DNA of 64,000 bases from a virus (taxonomy: Duplodnaviria > Caudoviricetes). A program made the position numbers and the translations under genes. The stretch covers positions 96,001 to 160,000 of IMG/VR virus record IMGVR_UViG_3300021387_003827; one strand, 5' to 3'. The notes under the pieces are model-generated. The model saw only the letters and a program-made list of their open reading frames with translations. It was not told the DNA's origin and searched no databases. Below, one piece after another: positions 7,644 to 15,634 of this stretch. Position 1 is the first letter of the stretch, and each line of letters opens with the position of its first letter.

Positions 7644-8942
7644 ATGGAGAAAATATATAATACAAAATCAGAATGGAATTCAGAAACAAAAACAGAACCA
7701 ACTATAGGATTAATAAAACAAACAGGAGAAGTTTTATATTCTGGCGGGATTAACTTTTGTACTTCCAGCCCGAAAATAGGAGATGCTTTATATCTTGATT
7801 CTGATGGTAAGCCTAAGGCAATTACTTTAGAATCATATACTCCAGCATCAATTCCTTCGGGCTGGACCCCCGTTGGATCTGTATATAATGTCACCGGGAA
7901 AGAGATTTGGGTTGTTGCTAAAGATGGTGCCTCAAAAAAATGGGCAGCTATACGACTTTGGGAAGTAAGTGGATATAATCTCGATGAGGCAAGTCATACA
8001 GCTACTTTCACCTTCTGTAATTCTTCGTCTGTTCGAACTGAATATCCATTCACATATTCAGCTACAACCAAGGAAGAGTTTTGTAACCAGCTTGATACGT
8101 GGCTTAGGGAAAATAATCCAGAGAATTATAAACCGAGGGCATATATAAAAGATGGTTATGTGTATCTTGCAGCTGACAATTATGCTTGGTGGCAACAGGA
8201 CTCATATACAACCTGTAGTGGATTAACTCTCACCCACTGGAGTACGCCTATTTCTAGAATTCCGGCAATATCACGTACACCACAAAATAATACTTTCAAG
8301 AATGTATATTGTATAGTTAATAAAGAAAGAATTAAACAGTGGGGAGGAAGAACGCCGTCCTCCAATGTAAGTCTCTCTGCAGTAGATACTCCAGTATCTA
8401 AAAACGCATTTAAAACTTCCTCATACTGTGATCTTATTCGGAACACATATGGAGACTATGATACATATCTAGATGCTGTTACGGCTCAACACCCGGCATC
8501 TAATGGATCTGTCTCATGGAGGAATGTCGGTCATGCAAAAACTCAGGAGTGGTGTTCCTTTACATACATAACTTCTTCAGGGAGCGAGGCACTTCTTTTC
8601 ACGGCGGCTAATTATGCAAATGATTATGGAATCCCTGACAGTCAATACTTTGCACCAGGAAATTGGTGGGTACCGGACGTAGACGAGATAATGTATATGA
8701 TGAAAAACATTACATATGGCTTATCTGGAGTCTCTATGGCTGATGCGGATCCGGTGAATAGGTGCCTGTATTTTATGGGAGGCACCGGAATAAGTTGCGC
8801 CGCTAGCAGATGGAGTTCTGTTCGTTACTACAGTTACAATTGCTGGTATTGTAACGGTAATGGTTACTTGAACGGCGTCAGCTTCAGTAGCTCGTTAATG
8901 GTGTCCCCGGTTTCCCGCCTTCTGAAAAGCGACCTCGATTAG
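7644..8942 (+). CDS. DGR target protein 1 (receptor-binding, C-terminal variable region)
   Basis: 3' end contains VR1 matching the TR; WWVPxxxEI...RWSS CLec-like motifs; paralog of 9375..10664. Confidence 0.9.
   Translation: MEKIYNTKSEWNSETKTEPTIGLIKQTGEVLYSGGINFCTSSPKIGDALYLDSDGKPKAITLESYTPASIPSGWTPVGSVYNVTGKEIWVVAKDGASKKWAAIRLWEVSGYNLDEASHTATFTFCNSSSVRTEYPFTYSATTKEEFCNQLDTWLRENNPENYKPRAYIKDGYVYLAADNYAWWQQDSYTTCSGLTLTHWSTPISRIPAISRTPQNNTFKNVYCIVNKERIKQWGGRTPSSNVSLSAVDTPVSKNAFKTSSYCDLIRNTYGDYDTYLDAVTAQHPASNGSVSWRNVGHAKTQEWCSFTYITSSGSEALLFTAANYANDYGIPDSQYFAPGNWWVPDVDEIMYMMKNITYGLSGVSMADADPVNRCLYFMGGTGISCAASRWSSVRYYSYNCWYCNGNGYLNGVSFSSSLMVSPVSRLLKSDLD
8799..8917 (+). repeat. DGR variable repeat VR1
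   Basis: 119-nt ungapped alignment to TR 11514..11632; 14 mismatches, all at TR adenines. Confidence 0.97.
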
Positions 8943-9030
8943 AGGGAGCGTCTCTGATTTAGTCGAGCGTTAGCGAAGACTTCTGAGGAGCGAATTGTAT
9001 GAGCGACGATAGTTAAATAAATATAAAATT

Positions 9031-9378
9031 ATGAATATAAAAAAAGTTCTAAGTGGGATAAAAACCTACATAGATAAAGTAATATCTAAACTATCCACCA
9101 CAGATTTAGTTGTCCCTACTGCCTATAAAGATTTAGATGAAAGGATAAAATCATTAGAAAATATACTTCTCTCTGGATCTTCGCGTGCAGGCGACTTAAA
9201 AGCAGATTCTTTGGATGGAAATGAAATAACTAGATTTGGTAAGAGTATAGTTCTTTATGGTTCTGGTGCCCCCACAGTAATTCCTGACTTTATCGGTCAG
9301 TTTTATGTGAACATGTCAGGACCAGCTCTATACTACGCAACTGGAACGGACTCAACCTCTAATTGGAAACAAGCATGA
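9031..9378 (+). CDS. Small tail-associated protein
   Basis: GSGAPTVIPDFIGQFYVN motif; lies between the two DGR targets. Confidence 0.6.
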   Translation: MNIKKVLSGIKTYIDKVISKLSTTDLVVPTAYKDLDERIKSLENILLSGSSRAGDLKADSLDGNEITRFGKSIVLYGSGAPTVIPDFIGQFYVNMSGPALYYATGTDSTSNWKQA

Positions 9379-10664
9379 TAGAAAAATATGAAAATGAGGC
9401 AGCCTGGAATTCCGCAGAGAAGACAGAAAATACATTAGGCCTTATTCAAAATACTGGAGAAATAAAAACAAAAGGATTTAATATAATAACTAAAAGTCCT
9501 AAAGTTGGTGATGCTATATATCTAGACCCGAATAACGATATTAGGGCAATAGAACTTGACTCTCTTACACCATCACTTCTCTCTGACTGGACTTCTGTTG
9601 GCTCTGTTTATCATACGGAAGGAGATAATATATGGATAGTTGCGAAAAATGGTGGGTCTTATAAATGGGCAGCTGTTGCTATATGGCGAGTGACTGGATA
9701 TACTTTAGATGGAACTTCTAGGACTGGAGTATGGGAATCCTATCAGGCGGCATCAACAACCACAGACAATACTTTTACATATTCAGCAACAACAAAAGAA
9801 GACTTTGCATCTCAACTTCATACCTTTATCTCTGCCATAGACTCGAGTATATATAACTACAGTGCTTATGTAAATACCGATGGTGAGGTTGTAATTCAGG
9901 CCAATATATATAATTCATATTGGCAGAATTATCCTTCATTTACATCTGGCCTATCAAGTACTATTTTTTATAATAACCCTAACCCCACAATAACATGGAG
10001 TCCAACTATGGATGGATTTCATATTATATATTCCACCTGTAATAAAAAAAGAATTAAACAGTGGGGAGGAAGAAATGCGCCGACTTCAGAGGTTCCTTGT
10101 CCGAATAATACACCAATATCAAAGGCCAGTTTCGAAGCTAATTCTAATTATGTATCTAGGTATGGAGATTATGAAACCTACTTAGACCAAAACCAATCTA
10201 GATGTCCTTCTGGTTGTGGGGCAGTATCACATAGAGATAAAGGAAAAGAGTATACAAATGCTCTTATCGGAAAAACCTATATAGATACCTCTGGGACGAC
10301 AAGGCCATTTTATTCGGCGGCAGAATATGCTGTTGGATATGGATTTTCGGGGAATACAAAACTATCGGCCGGGAAATGGTGGGTACCCGATCTTGAAGAA
10401 ATAGTTTATATGATGAGAGACACTACTTATGGTCTTTCTGGGGTTTCTGCTGCAAATGCCGACCCTGTGAATAGATGTTTAAACCTCATGGGTGGATCTC
10501 TTATTTCAGCGACCGCTTACAGATGGAGTTCTGTTCGTTGCGACAGTTACCATTGCTGGAGTTATGACAGTATTGGTTACTTGTACATCGACAACTTCTA
10601 TAACTCGTTTATGGTGTCCCCGGTTTCCCGCCTTTTGAAAAGCGAATTGTATGAGCGACGATAG
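9375..10664 (+). CDS. DGR target protein 2 (receptor-binding, C-terminal variable region)
   Basis: ATG 9375 (ATGA overlap); paralog of target 1; carries VR2. Confidence 0.9.
   Translation: MIEKYENEAAWNSAEKTENTLGLIQNTGEIKTKGFNIITKSPKVGDAIYLDPNNDIRAIELDSLTPSLLSDWTSVGSVYHTEGDNIWIVAKNGGSYKWAAVAIWRVTGYTLDGTSRTGVWESYQAASTTTDNTFTYSATTKEDFASQLHTFISAIDSSIYNYSAYVNTDGEVVIQANIYNSYWQNYPSFTSGLSSTIFYNNPNPTITWSPTMDGFHIIYSTCNKKRIKQWGGRNAPTSEVPCPNNTPISKASFEANSNYVSRYGDYETYLDQNQSRCPSGCGAVSHRDKGKEYTNALIGKTYIDTSGTTRPFYSAAEYAVGYGFSGNTKLSAGKWWVPDLEEIVYMMRDTTYGLSGVSAANADPVNRCLNLMGGSLISATAYRWSSVRCDSYHCWSYDSIGYLYIDNFYNSFMVSPVSRLLKSELYERR
10509..10630 (+). repeat. DGR variable repeat VR2
   Basis: 122-nt ungapped alignment to TR 11511..11632; 14 mismatches, all at TR adenines. 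Confidence 0.97.
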
Positions 10665-10689
10665 TCCTGCGCAGTTGTACGCGCAGGAC
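10664..10689 (+). promoter_or_regulatory. GC-rich hairpin/cruciform downstream of VR2 (DGR target recognition element)
   Basis: GTCCTGCGC-agttgtac-GCGCAGGAC perfect 9-bp stem about 34 nt after the VR, no T-run. Confidence 0.7.
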
Positions 10690-10731
10690 CTGATAAATCG
10701 TGGAAATAATATCTATTAAAATTGTTTCATT

Positions 10732-11397
10732 ATGAACAAGAATAACAGTCCACTATCTTCTAAAGTGGCGGGATTTAGAAAAAGTATTAAGAAAAGAAGC
10801 AGAACCACTAGATTACCAAAACCAAAGACAGGGGTAGACCTTGTTGTGGAAATGAAAGCAATGCATAAATTATTACGTGGCTTAATATCTAAGAATTTAA
10901 TTACTTATGATAGAGAGCACCTACTAAAAGATATGATCGAATATTGTCTTAATATTATTTTCAGATTAGAACAATGGAGAACAGTAAAAGCTAAAGATGT
11001 TAAAGAAAGATTTAGAGTGTGCGAAATTTCCTATAATGAGTATGTAAAATTAAAATACTCACTTAGGTTAATTGTAGAAGACCCAGACCTTCATTTAAGA
11101 GGCCAGAAAAACCAAATAATTGCAGAAGTCTTAAATATTATATCAAGAGCTGATGAAGGTTTTAAGAAATGGTATACATACTCTTATGAAACATATTATA
11201 AAGCTTTTAGTGTCCCGTTTGGATTTAGTGATGTTTCGCCTATATCTAATCCAACAGTAAATAGCCAGACTGGTTCTAATATTAATCCCTTTTTATGTCG
11301 AAGTGAATCAAATGCTATAGCAGGGAAATCCTTCGACTATAATCAATCTGGCATAGTAAACGGTGGAGATGGAGAATCCACCGAGGATATAGACTAA
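10732..11397 (+). CDS. avd: Accessory variability determinant (Avd-like four-helix bundle)
   Basis: Basic helical protein between target and TR; LKYSLRLI...W pattern. Confidence 0.7.
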   Translation: MNKNNSPLSSKVAGFRKSIKKRSRTTRLPKPKTGVDLVVEMKAMHKLLRGLISKNLITYDREHLLKDMIEYCLNIIFRLEQWRTVKAKDVKERFRVCEISYNEYVKLKYSLRLIVEDPDLHLRGQKNQIIAEVLNIISRADEGFKKWYTYSYETYYKAFSVPFGFSDVSPISNPTVNSQTGSNINPFLCRSESNAIAGKSFDYNQSGIVNGGDGESTEDID

Positions 11398-11510
11398 GTT
11401 CTATATTCGACATTGAAACAAATCCTTATTAAATAATAATGGGAATCATAGGTAGCAACAACACTGATTTTACATTAAGTTGACCCTACCAACATCAAAT
11501 TTGATTGGGA

Positions 11511-11632
11511 ACGACCGCTAACAGATGGAGTTCTGTTCGTTACAACAGTAACAATTGCTGGAATTATAACAGTAATGGTTACTTGAACAACAACAACTTC
11601 AATAACTCGTTAATGGTGTCCCCGGTTTCCCG
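11511..11632 (+). ncRNA. DGR template repeat (TR)
   Basis: AAC/AAT-rich master copy of VR1 and VR2; diverges from them after GTTTCCCG (IMH* vs IMH). Confidence 0.97.
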
Positions 11633-11645
11633 ACATTATTATATT

Positions 11646-11957
11646 ATGGATATTATAAGTCTCCTTGAGGCCTACAAGATAGCTAGAAAATCTAATATAG
11701 CTAAAGCATTTGTTTCCATAGATAACTTAAACAAAATACCAAATAAAGAAGATAGAGTAATTGATTTTCTCCAAACTGTTAATTCTTATCTTGGTATGCT
11801 TAGGAATCGGAATAGTTATGGTGCACTCTTAGAACTACTACGATATGTAGACCCTGAATGGTGGTTATACTTTACTATAGCAATAGATAAGAATACTAAG
11901 AAAATTAAGAAGGTTGTCTTGAAGGATCAATATAAAAAGAAAAGAATTATAGTATGA
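11646..11957 (+). pseudogene. DGR reverse transcriptase remnant, in-frame internal deletion (103 aa)
   Basis: Canonical RT position right after the TR; N-term LLEAYKIARK and C-term FLQTVNSYLGMLRNRNSY resemble DGR RT ends; no YxDD or palm. Confidence 0.8.
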
Positions 11958-12160
11958 AAAGCGCAGAAACCAGAATTCATGAGGCCCAAGAATACCTTAA
12001 TGCAACTGATTATAAAGTAATCAAGTGGGCAGAGGGTGTAGAAGAGCCAGATGAAGAAATAAAAAGAAAACGTCAGAAAGCCAGGGACACTATAAATGAG
12101 TGTCTGAATGAAATCAAGTCTAGGCCGGTGGATCCTGATGAATTTCTTAGAGAGGTGTAA
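11954..12160 (+). CDS. Tail fibre assembly chaperone-like small protein
   Basis: LNATDYKVIK...RQKARDTIN motif. Confidence 0.6.
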   Translation: MKSAETRIHEAQEYLNATDYKVIKWAEGVEEPDEEIKRKRQKARDTINECLNEIKSRPVDPDEFLREV

Positions 12161-12177
12161 AAACCTCTCTTCTTTTC
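12149..12177 (+). terminator. Intrinsic terminator ending tail/DGR operon
   Basis: AGAGAGGT-gtaaaa-ACCTCTCT followed by TCTTTT. Confidence 0.7.
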
Positions 12178-12192
12178 TTCCCACCCCCAGAC

Positions 12193-12204
12193 TCTTATAA
12201 TTGA
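12193..12204 (+). promoter_or_regulatory. Phage promoter motif copy TCTTATAATTGA
   Basis: Matches the recurrent YCTTATWNNTGW motif; directly after a terminator. Confidence 0.65.
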
Positions 12205-12225
12205 AACTATAAAATAATACAAAAT

Positions 12226-13512
12226 ATGCCAAAGAAAATTACATGGATTAAAAACGGATCAACTTTTACTAGAGCAGAAGGAGAAGTATCTGCTCTATCT
12301 AAGTTACCAAAAGCAATTTATACAATAAACTTCAATCCGATGGCGGGTTGGTCTATTGAACATTTTGCAGATAAGTTTGAATTTGGTTATAAGATTTACG
12401 GTCTTCAGGAGGAATTCATTAAGTACATTATTAATACCTGGGAGAATACTACAGGAAATCTTGGTATACTCCTTAATGGAATCCGTGGAACTGGTAAAAC
12501 TGTAACAGCAAAGATACTCTGTAATACTATTCCTGATCTTCCCGTTATTTTAATTAAGAATATGGGAAATTATAATCAGGGTATGATAGAGTATATCGGC
12601 GCATTTAATTTTGACTGTATTCTCCTGATAGACGAGTTTGAGAAAGAATTTAGTAAGGAAGACTCCACTATTCTTCAGCTAATGGATGGTGTTTACACGA
12701 GTGGTCATAGAAAAATATGCCTTCTCACGACTAACACTTTATCTGTGAATGAGAATCTCCTGGATCGTCCTACGCGAGTGAGATATGTAAAGAAGTTTGG
12801 AAATATTGATCTGAAATCCGCGACAGAGTACCTTGAGGATAATCTTAATGATAAATCTCTGATTAATGAGATTATATCCTACACAGATACCCTGAAGATC
12901 TCAACCATCGATATTCTGAAGATGATTGTGGAGGAGATCAATATTCATGGTATAGATGAATTTAGAAAATCAAAGAATTTCCTTAATATCTCTACAAACG
13001 ACTACTCTTATAGGACTATATATTGTTCAATTGAAGGTGGAGAAGGAATTAAGAAAGTACAAACCTACTGTAATGAGAAAGGCTGGGCACTGAAAGACTT
13101 CTTCAAAGCCACACTAATGACGAGGAAAAATCCAATGTATAGTCCATATATCAAAGACGAGGACAACGTAACAAAGGCTGAGAAGGAGAAACTAGAAAAA
13201 TATCAAGAATGGTGTGCTCTTAGAGCAGAACTACAGAGAATGTGTATTATTAGCCCAGGATATAACACCATAGAAACTGAAAGAAAAATCAATAACTATA
13301 AAGTTGGTGATATTTTCATTCAACGCATAGATGATTATGATCCTGATGAGTCTTATGTTGAGAAAATTATATATCTCGAAAAAGATTTTATTATATCTCA
13401 GCAAGAGTATAAGGATGGTAGAGTTTATCTGAATGGATACATTATTGAATCCTATTCTCAGAGCAGTATTTATGGAACCGGCGGCCCTGGAGCTATAATT
13501 AACGTTTTATAA
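12226..13512 (+). CDS. AAA-family ATPase
   Basis: Walker A GIRGTGKT, Walker B LLIDEFEK, LLTTN, DRPTR. Confidence 0.85.
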   Translation: MPKKITWIKNGSTFTRAEGEVSALSKLPKAIYTINFNPMAGWSIEHFADKFEFGYKIYGLQEEFIKYIINTWENTTGNLGILLNGIRGTGKTVTAKILCNTIPDLPVILIKNMGNYNQGMIEYIGAFNFDCILLIDEFEKEFSKEDSTILQLMDGVYTSGHRKICLLTTNTLSVNENLLDRPTRVRYVKKFGNIDLKSATEYLEDNLNDKSLINEIISYTDTLKISTIDILKMIVEEINIHGIDEFRKSKNFLNISTNDYSYRTIYCSIEGGEGIKKVQTYCNEKGWALKDFFKATLMTRKNPMYSPYIKDEDNVTKAEKEKLEKYQEWCALRAELQRMCIISPGYNTIETERKINNYKVGDIFIQRIDDYDPDESYVEKIIYLEKDFIISQQEYKDGRVYLNGYIIESYSQSSIYGTGGPGAIINVL

Positions 13513-13513
13513 T

Positions 13514-15634
13514 ATGAAAGACCTACTTCAAAAACAATTCGACAAGCTTCAAGAGACAGGAATGCTCTTTAGAAGCGAGATTTCTGGAGATAAACTCTGG
13601 GAACTATATATGAAAGGATTTGGACAGGATCCTATATATCTATGTCCAGATTCCAGTGAGCATAATTGTAATAATTGTCATAATTTTATCAGAAGATACG
13701 GAAATATCGTAGCTCTTGATAAGGACTTAAACATTATGACATTATTCGATAACTGTTCCGATCCAGAGTACAAGAACTCCTTTGATCTTATGTCCTCTGA
13801 ACTTAAAGGTGCAAAGATTCAAAGAGTATTCAAAGAAACGTGGGACATGCTTAATAAGCTGCCCTATGAAAGAATCACCAAGAGAAATACTAAGTATCAG
13901 CTTGGTGTAGCTTCGAATGTAAGAGTCTTTACTCCTGAGGATGTTAAGAAATATGGGTCTGTAGTTAAAGCCGGGAGCACGACAACCTTTGAGCACTTGT
14001 CCATGGTCGTTGACTCCATTTATGTGGATACAACAGGGGCTAGTATAGAAAATATCGAGGCTAGATATCGGGAAGATAAAAATGTCTTCAAGAGAGCGCT
14101 AGACGAAATCCCGGTTGATACATTACTTCTTGTAAAGGATCTTATCAATCAGGGGTCTCTCTTAGATGGAACGGCTCATCTGCATAAGATAGAGGCCATG
14201 ATTCCAATCGCTCAGGAATATGAAAACGTTCCGAAAGACAAAGAAGACAACTGGGCCTGGGTACAATCATATGAATTTAAGTACGCCAGATTTAGAAATG
14301 AGCTGATCGGGGTATTATGCTCTGACTTAGCACAGGGAGTAGAACTCAATAAGGCCGTACAGGATTGGAACAAGAGAGTAGATCCTGCAAATTATATGAA
14401 GGCTACTGCTCCTATCACCAAGCAAATGATTTCTGAAGCAAAGAAATTCATTGAGGACAACGGATACGCCGAGTCATTTACACGTAGGGTAGCTACAATA
14501 GATGATATCAAAGCTTCTGACATCCTTCACATAAACTCTGGTGATGGGAAAATTAACCCAGTATCTGTGCTTGATTCTCTTGCTCCGACCGCACCCACAA
14601 GACATAAGAAGTCTGAGTTTGACGGGGTAGAAACCGTGTCCATAGACAAGTTTATGAAGGATATTCTACCAGGGTGTACCAGTGTTGAAGTATATTTGCA
14701 GTCTAAGCACGCAAAGAATTTCGTTACATTGACTACGGCAGAGAATAAAGACTCCAAGCCTATATTTAAATGGCCAAATAATTTCTCGTGGACTTACACC
14801 GGAGGCCTCGCTGGTAAGAGCCAAATTAAAGAAGCGGTTAAGAAAGCCGGTGGATTTGTAGATGCCCCGTTCCGATTCTCTATAATGTGGAATGAAGACG
14901 GAAGAAGTATCGTGGATCTTGACGCGCATGCTATAGAAGGAGGCGGTGGCGGACATATCTATTATGGAAGCTTTAGGTCTCCCAACCATACGAATTTTGG
15001 TGGCACTCTTGATGTTGATATGATTCGACCTACGGAGGTTGGTGTAGAAAATATTTTCTGGAATGACATGTCAAGAGTGGCCGATGGAACATACAAGTTC
15101 TTCATTAGAAACTTCGATGGAGGAAATTGTAGTGGAGCAAAAGCGGAAATCGCAATTGGTGACTCGGTATTTCAGTACTTTGTTCCAGGATGTGATCTTC
15201 ATGGACACGTTGATGCTCAAATTGCAGAAGTTACTATCAAAGATGGAGATCTCTCCTCGATTAAGCAATCCAAGTATCTTACTTCAGAAGATGCCGTAGG
15301 TATTGAAATATTTGGTCTAAAGACCGGAGAATTCCAAAAGGTAAATCTAATTTGCCTTAGTCCAAATCATTGGGACAGTCCTGTAGGAAATAAACACTAT
15401 TTCTTTATGTTGGATGGTGCAAAGAGTCCAGAATCAATCAGAACCTTCCACAATGAGAACCTAATTCCTGAACTTCTCAACCACAGAAAGGTCATGGAAG
15501 TCTTAGGAAATACAACTAAGGCTGAATCAGTGAAGGGTCAATTATCCGGACTTGGATTTGACTCCACAGTACGAGACGAGGTTATTCTTCGACTTAAAGG
15601 ATCATTCAAACGTTTAATAAAAGTAACATTCTAA
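13514..15634 (+). CDS. Conserved large-phage hypothetical protein (Cys/His N-terminus, DLDxH..LDVD..VENI domain)
   Basis: HNCNNCHNF; DLDAHAIE, LDVDM, VENIFW; GNKHYFFML. Confidence 0.7.
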   Translation: MKDLLQKQFDKLQETGMLFRSEISGDKLWELYMKGFGQDPIYLCPDSSEHNCNNCHNFIRRYGNIVALDKDLNIMTLFDNCSDPEYKNSFDLMSSELKGAKIQRVFKETWDMLNKLPYERITKRNTKYQLGVASNVRVFTPEDVKKYGSVVKAGSTTTFEHLSMVVDSIYVDTTGASIENIEARYREDKNVFKRALDEIPVDTLLLVKDLINQGSLLDGTAHLHKIEAMIPIAQEYENVPKDKEDNWAWVQSYEFKYARFRNELIGVLCSDLAQGVELNKAVQDWNKRVDPANYMKATAPITKQMISEAKKFIEDNGYAESFTRRVATIDDIKASDILHINSGDGKINPVSVLDSLAPTAPTRHKKSEFDGVETVSIDKFMKDILPGCTSVEVYLQSKHAKNFVTLTTAENKDSKPIFKWPNNFSWTYTGGLAGKSQIKEAVKKAGGFVDAPFRFSIMWNEDGRSIVDLDAHAIEGGGGGHIYYGSFRSPNHTNFGGTLDVDMIRPTEVGVENIFWNDMSRVADGTYKFFIRNFDGGNCSGAKAEIAIGDSVFQYFVPGCDLHGHVDAQIAEVTIKDGDLSSIKQSKYLTSEDAVGIEIFGLKTGEFQKVNLICLSPNHWDSPVGNKHYFFMLDGAKSPESIRTFHNENLIPELLNHRKVMEVLGNTTKAESVKGQLSGLGFDSTVRDEVILRLKGSFKRLIKVTF

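Follow-up and report, generated by a model that had tools for sequence, protein, structure and literature searches.

Probable recent, strain-specific deletion of the reverse transcriptase core in an otherwise intact phage DGR

A DGR cassette in which the template repeat (TR), both VRs and the neighbouring genes look undamaged, but the reverse transcriptase (RT) is shortened to 103 residues, raises the question of whether such an element is still diversified by an enzyme acting from elsewhere, whether its short RT product has acquired a role, or whether the element has simply stopped. This situation is found in the window, by which we mean the whole analysed stretch of 64,000 nt (positions 96,001 to 160,000 of the IMG/VR record IMGVR_UViG_3300021387_003827). 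Its + strand carries two paralogous target genes, a gene for a 221-aa protein, the TR, the 103-aa ORF and a gene for a 68-aa protein, in this order (Table 1). An earlier note, made from the letters of this DNA, had offered three readings of the locus: a recent deletion, a non-autonomous DGR using an RT in trans, and an assembly artefact. Its phrase that the deletion “locked in successful receptor variants” is a speculative gloss.

Table 1. Features of the DGR locus, in window coordinates
Feature	Position	Strand	Details
DGR target gene 1	7644..8942	+	432 aa; VR1 8800-8917 at 3' end; 14 mismatches to TR, all at TR adenines
DGR target gene 2, paralogue of target 1	9363..10664	+	VR2 10510-10630; 13 mismatches to TR, all at TR adenines
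Accessory gene, possibly Avd-like	10732..11397	+	221 aa; in relatives of equal length, 96% identity
Template repeat (TR)	11512..11632	+	121 nt; 37 adenines in 119 compared positions
RT remnant ORF	11646..11957	+	103 aa; ATG 11646, stop 11955-11957
Deletion junction	11695..11697	+	11695 last left-flank base, 11697 first right-flank base
Downstream gene	11954..12160	+	68 aa; ATG overlaps RT stop as ATGA

The repeats themselves bear the hallmark of DGRs, differences between TR and VR that are confined to adenines, and they do so for both VRs. All 27 mismatches fall on TR adenines, while none was registered at the 82 other positions of either VR (0 of 164 in total), and the probability of such a distribution by chance is about 2e-14. 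The G+C-rich 3' end of the TR (11613-11632) is common to both VRs. The word ATGGTGTCCCCGGTTTCCCG is shared by TR, VR1 and VR2 and is followed by CCTTYTGAAAAGCGA in the VRs and by ACATTATT in the TR; judged from the letters, this divergence after a shared 3' end fits, as expected, the relation of IMH to IMH*. Only one base separates this TR from the TRs of its relatives. At TR position 120 (window 11624; VR1 8909; VR2 10622) there is G here, C in the group of the related contig L001 and T in the group of L039 and L056, and in every strain for which VRs were available they carry the base of their own TR. Information therefore passes from TR to VRs within each lineage, and since both VRs of the window carry the private G of 11624, the last homing used the strain's own TR rather than that of a sister phage. 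Copying into cDNA seems to start at most about 8 nt from where the TR/VR homology ends, and so nearer to it than in BPP-1, if the strain-matched base is a proper guide. In one more contig, L044, a second strain-matched TR/VR marker lies 3 nt upstream of position 120.

The origin of the 103-aa ORF became clear from a 392-aa relative, P0001, found by a search limited to longer proteins. It is encoded on the syntenic contig L001, whose DNA runs collinear to that of the window for about 20 kb (96% identity), with the RT at the exactly matching position. BLASTP aligned residues 1-16 of the ORF with residues 1-16 of P0001 (16/16) and residues 17-103 with residues 306-392 (83/87, 95%), so that the collapse of the RT to an in-frame protein made of its two termini, as it had been described, is confirmed. 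In terms of codons the product consists of RT residues 1-16, an Asn17 whose codon is formed by AA of the left flank and a new T (base 11696, absent from both flanks), and RT residues 307-392, i.e. the thumb or C-terminal region. The DNA flanks thus place at 11695-11697 a junction that the earlier note had put near 11690-11697. Compared with 12 full-length loci, against all of which the junction is identical, RT codons 17-306 are removed, which shortens the gene in frame by a net 867 nt (289 codons). The lost part takes in the entire RVT_1 region that Pfam recognises in P0001 (residues 62-295, E 3.5e-16) with the motifs KLDIKGFF at 129, AIGFLIWQ at 209 and FVDD at 242 (P0001 numbering), in agreement with the absence of fingers, palm and YxDD reported before. 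An adjacent RT with an intact catalytic core is therefore present in the sister strains and missing from the window, and the cassette of the window is a disabled DGR, not a functional one.

P0001 has its best PDB sequence match in 8ub7_A (E 2e-15), an entry entitled “DGR ribonucleoprotein reverse transcriptase”. Scans of the 103-aa ORF against Pfam, PHROG and NCBIfam gave no match. An HMM of the clade's RTs recognised the ORF with E 1.8e-24, as the only match in the 183-kb record, so that the homology was revealed by this HMM and the full-length allele only. The retained part includes NSYLG..R..N.Y, the most conserved thumb motif of the clade in an alignment with IMG/VR RTs of 24-32% identity. 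Relative to its relatives it differs by 2-9 synonymous and 2-3 non-synonymous codons, all for an allele from one strain. An AF2 model based on a 12-row alignment is all-helical and of low confidence (mean pLDDT 54.7). A microhomology-mediated deletion was considered for the junction and rejected: the 6-7-mers ATCTAAA, CTAAAGC, ATAGCTA and AGAACC are shared near both breakpoints, and none of them yields the observed junction. The longest word common to both flanks is 7 nt.

The same junction was registered in a 37-kb Logan contig from SRR873601 (L043/L046), in a 3.2-kb contig from JGI 3300002641 (L047) and in the IMG/VR record, and the exact product in its 114-aa form, called from the ATG at 11613, is encoded also on two contigs of 0.2-1 Mb; a contig of 318,918 bp is among its carriers. 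The junction contigs match the window without a single difference (100% identity), also in the VRs, for 12,666 nt and 3,159 nt, so that the deleted allele belongs to one strain. All of these identical contigs may come from one sample. Only one VR haplotype of this strain has been recorded, and the protein clusters contained no member that combines its non-VR sequence with another VR. The earlier note had held that monomorphic VRs together with a strain-unique deletion would favour simple decay; one haplotype in one strain is what was found, though the monomorphic VRs are weak evidence because of the possibly common origin of the contigs.

Every other relative found keeps the full-length RT. 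At least 12 related contigs with 96-97% identical DNA encode a 392-aa RT at the same position; P0007 is present on 13 contigs, and P0008, P0010, P0011 and P0013 are further full-length forms. Both breakpoints have the same sequence in all full-length relatives. A 52-aa protein grouped in the RT cluster, P0009, turned out to be unrelated to the locus. In one contig, L039 (1600-1610), the RT DNA is of full length, but loss of 1 nt in an A5 run splits it into ORFs of 280 and 96 aa; with coverage of 2.6x, the loss reflects either an error of sequencing or an RT inactivation that occurred independently, as a second one, in the phage group.

Among the RT-intact strains the target-1 proteins have 0 differences in 385 non-VR residues and 9-12 differences within the VR, and the target-2 proteins have 0 differences outside the VR versus 15 within it. 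These comparisons of translated sequences show strong VR turnover in the sister strains: the element is active when intact. Many contigs of RT-intact relatives stop inside VR1, VR2 or the TR or at their borders (L049, L051-L056, L059, L060 and L045), and the Logan contig of the deleted strain passes through both VRs. Such a pattern would fit VRs that are heterogeneous within samples in the RT-intact strains only, but assemblies could also be interrupted by repeats as such.

The deletion could have affected more than the protein. In BPP-1 synthesis of cDNA requires nearly the whole 144-nt spacer located 3' of the TR (PMC6182149). The distance from TR end to RT start is 19-50 nt across the clade and 14 nt here, and with the TR ending so near the RT start a comparable RNA element would lie inside the first RT codons. 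For the RNA of the full-length allele, taken from the TR end to +175, the predicted folding was better than that of shuffled sequences (z = -2.4), with a 14-bp hairpin at RT +60 to +92. RNA of the deleted allele, in which the deletion starts at +50, folded no better than shuffles (z = 0.1). In L001 the predicted 14-bp hairpin is enclosed by an outer GAGGCCU/AGGGCCUC stem at 10022-10100 (RT +22 to +100). Nucleotide diversity among relatives is low in the same part of the gene: there is 1 variable site in RT +0 to +120 versus approximately 4 per 60 nt elsewhere, and the predicted hairpin, located in the first 100 nt of the RT gene, coincides with a stretch of unusually low diversity. In distant members of the clade the 5' part of the RT gene revealed no evident common hairpin. 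One predicted fold and low diversity are thus suggestive of a spacer-like priming element overlapping the RT ORF, which we regard as a candidate.

The remaining parts of the cassette are in place. The earlier description of TR, VRs, IMH and coupling to the next gene as intact, with no drift at bases other than A, stands, and accessory gene, TR and ATGA overlap are all preserved in the deleted strain. Target gene 2 encodes 433 aa from the TTG at 9363 and 429 aa as called from 9375; neither target protein belongs to a Pfam or PHROG family. Each VR is followed by one copy of a 34-nt direct repeat (window 8980-9013 and 10632-10665, 91% identical). This repeat could provide a route to loss or gain of target 2, or to assembly collapse. 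In two relatives, L050 (1-2725) and L045, a single target gene precedes the accessory gene.

The label “avd” given to the accessory gene before can be kept only in part. An AF2 model places helices at residues 34-53, 61-82, 90-116 and 126-158, followed by a disordered tail, so that residues 34-158 are predicted to form a four-helix bundle, and a structure search of the Atlas gave as its top match a PF05635 four-helix-bundle cluster (TM 0.77 by target). However, HMMs of Pfam, PHROG and NCBIfam did not match the protein, and in a Foldseek search of the PDB the model gave nothing significant, Avd (4dwl_C) standing at rank 24 with E 0.43. The protein is possibly Avd-like, which on this modelled fold makes a reasonable lead rather than a result. 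The 68-aa downstream protein weakly resembles a PHROG family annotated “tail fiber assembly” (phrog_4912, E 2e-5). Overlap of its ATG with the RT stop as ATGA is kept in all relatives, and a terminator-like hairpin follows the gene at 12149-12170. An Rfam search of 10400-12400 found no match. The promoter-like motif reported upstream of the TR is indeed present at 11423-11434 but is not enriched: as scored with one degenerate pattern, 2 matches were obtained versus 0.87 expected, and 23 of 100 shuffles also reached 2.

The phage is a large, rumen-type one, and the window lies on an IMG/VR record of 182,986 bp. This record, with an exact 88-nt repeat at its ends, is assigned to the class with direct terminal repeats. 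Its completeness according to CheckV is nevertheless 49%, and there are near-identical or related contigs as long as 318,918-355,017 bp; for both reasons the record may be incomplete despite the terminal repeat and may represent approximately one half of a genome that measures some 350 kb. RNA-polymerase beta-like subunits are encoded by the phage (window 17106-20258 on the - strand and neighbours; PF00562 on a 1050-aa protein), and with RNA-polymerase subunits of its own it looks like a large phage of lytic type. According to an earlier survey, DGRs of phages are confined to temperate phages (PMC6199706). Immediately after the DGR operon and the gene of an AAA ATPase (12226-13512) there is a conserved gene for a 706-aa protein (13514-15634), which matches phrog_1735 (E 2e-191) and DUF8224 and has no assigned function. 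Close relatives of the phage were absent from IMG/VR and INPHARED in the scans made: blastn of the locus found no match among INPHARED phages, and searches of IMG/VR by accessory protein, junction word or IMH word found no relatives. Metagenome contigs scanned with the IMH word gave three matches, all of them unrelated chance ones.

How the short RT is to be understood depends first of all on whether the junction is real. If the true genome had a full-length RT, the assembler must have skipped 867 nt; with flanks that share words of at most 7 nt a de Bruijn graph needs junction-spanning reads to join them, the T at 11696 belongs to neither flank, and the junction is agreed upon by three separately produced contigs, with two larger ones encoding the same product. 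The short shared words and the identical junction in three contigs make an artefact very unlikely, and this third reading of the earlier note can be considered effectively excluded. A real deletion may still leave a working element if the RT is supplied in trans, by the unseen part of the genome, by the host or by a co-infecting RT-intact sister phage, and a sister could help either with its own complex of TR RNA and RT or with its RT acting on the TR RNA of this strain. Such a non-autonomous DGR would agree with cis-acting parts that are all intact apart from the RT and with VRs devoid of drift. Samples of the same kind commonly contain RT-intact sisters (96-97% identity) whose TR deviates at one base, the avd-TR-brt set of BPP-1 is stated to work in trans from a plasmid (PMC5758913), and if the 183-kb record is incomplete an RT could sit in the remainder. 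In the 182,986-bp record, however, PF00078 had no match, the clade HMM applied with filters off to all six-frame ORFs returned the remnant only, and the deleted RT segment was not present elsewhere. The private G at 11624, and not the sisters' C or T, in both VRs points to a last homing from the strain's own TR; the deletion takes away the predicted hairpin with its low-diversity stretch, at the site where BPP-1 has its essential spacer (PMC6182149); and one VR haplotype is on record. We consider continued diversification in trans unlikely.

A more specific form of the same idea, a helper-dependent DGR in a large phage of lytic type, where the RT would act in trans and the protein made of N-terminus and thumb would be retained as an adaptor or competitor, appears distinctly unlikely. 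With no second RT in 183 kb, a low-confidence fold and the hairpin removed, diversification by an RT in trans, the second of the three readings offered before, gained no positive support. It is also conceivable that the 103-aa protein itself has a function for which it is retained; it could, for example, bind TR RNA or the accessory protein, either as a regulator or so as to inhibit the DGR of a sister phage in a dominant-negative manner. Preservation of the frame and of both termini, and the conserved thumb motif in the retained part, speak for this. But one deletion in three is expected to be in frame, translation of the overlapping downstream gene explains the frame equally well, the model of the protein is of low confidence, and the allele occurs in one strain only, so that we regard such a function as highly improbable.

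Based on these data one can assume, as a probable explanation, that a phage DGR which was active before and is otherwise intact lost its function recently through a deletion specific to one strain, with both VRs frozen. This single deletion removed all RT fingers and palm and left the enzyme dead, after which the element would be unable to make its own cDNA and both VRs would stay as written by the last homing event. The 103-aa product would then have no role of its own. Its in-frame structure could have arisen by chance or been selected, as ribosomes would still reach the ATGA overlap of the 68-aa gene; since translation up to this overlap is preserved, selection for expression of the downstream gene is enough to account for the retained frame. 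Another possible consequence of the deletion is damage to an RNA element after the TR that cDNA priming requires. We infer that the event was recent from the complete absence of non-A mismatches in both VRs and from the undecayed state of the other parts. Undamaged VRs are equally compatible with an element that is still active and with one that stopped recently. In the literature, truncated DGR RTs accompanied by intact TR and VR were read as “very recent inactivations” (PMC3521204). Of the readings proposed in the earlier note it is therefore the recent deletion that agrees with the data, as the allele is restricted to one strain, relatives at 96-97% identity keep the 392-aa gene and the VRs show no drift at other bases. 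Disabled DGR RTs with clean TR/VR pairs have already been published (PMC3521204), and there is no new mechanism here.

The importance of the locus is modest and lies in the fact that nature has cleanly knocked out the RT of a phage DGR for which many RT-intact sisters at 96-97% identity are available. Such pairing is useful for estimating the rate of VR turnover with and without the enzyme, and for locating RNA elements of cDNA priming in a clade whose TR abuts the RT start. A cassette of this kind would escape RT-based DGR finders despite its perfect TR/VR pair.

Among known systems BPP-1 (mtd - avd - TR - brt; 8UB7 and related structures, Avd 4DWL) offers the closest parallel in organisation. 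In both cases a tail-fibre-type gene carries at its 3' end a VR into which the TR is copied, altered at TR adenines only, TR and VR diverge after a G+C-rich shared 3' end, and a small helical accessory gene is located 5' of the TR; bRT is, moreover, the protein of the best PDB match mentioned above for the sister-strain RT. The two differ in that the catalytic core of the RT is deleted here, two paralogous targets are present instead of one, the accessory protein has 221 aa and lacks an Avd HMM match, and the TR end is separated from the RT start by 14 nt versus approximately 144 nt. BPP-1 is a temperate podovirus, whereas the phage studied here is a large one with RNA polymerase subunits (PF00562). 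In RT sequence the nearest proteins of GenBank phages are those of Bacteroides phages F1, F2 and F4 (34-36% identity over 92% of length), and in IMG/VR those of uncultured gut and rumen phages (34-48%). They resemble the clade in the 19-50 nt spacing between TR and RT and in the AQ/WQ form of motif 4, but the identity is just 34-48% and the phage genomes are small. The truncated-RT DGRs collected by Schillinger et al. (2012, DiGReF, PMC3521204) are alike in that the RT is disabled and the TR/VR differences are still limited to adenines. Those cases arose from transposon insertions, nonsense mutations and frameshifts, whereas here the RT was hit by a single internal in-frame deletion, and beyond them the present locus has many intact sister alleles for direct comparison.
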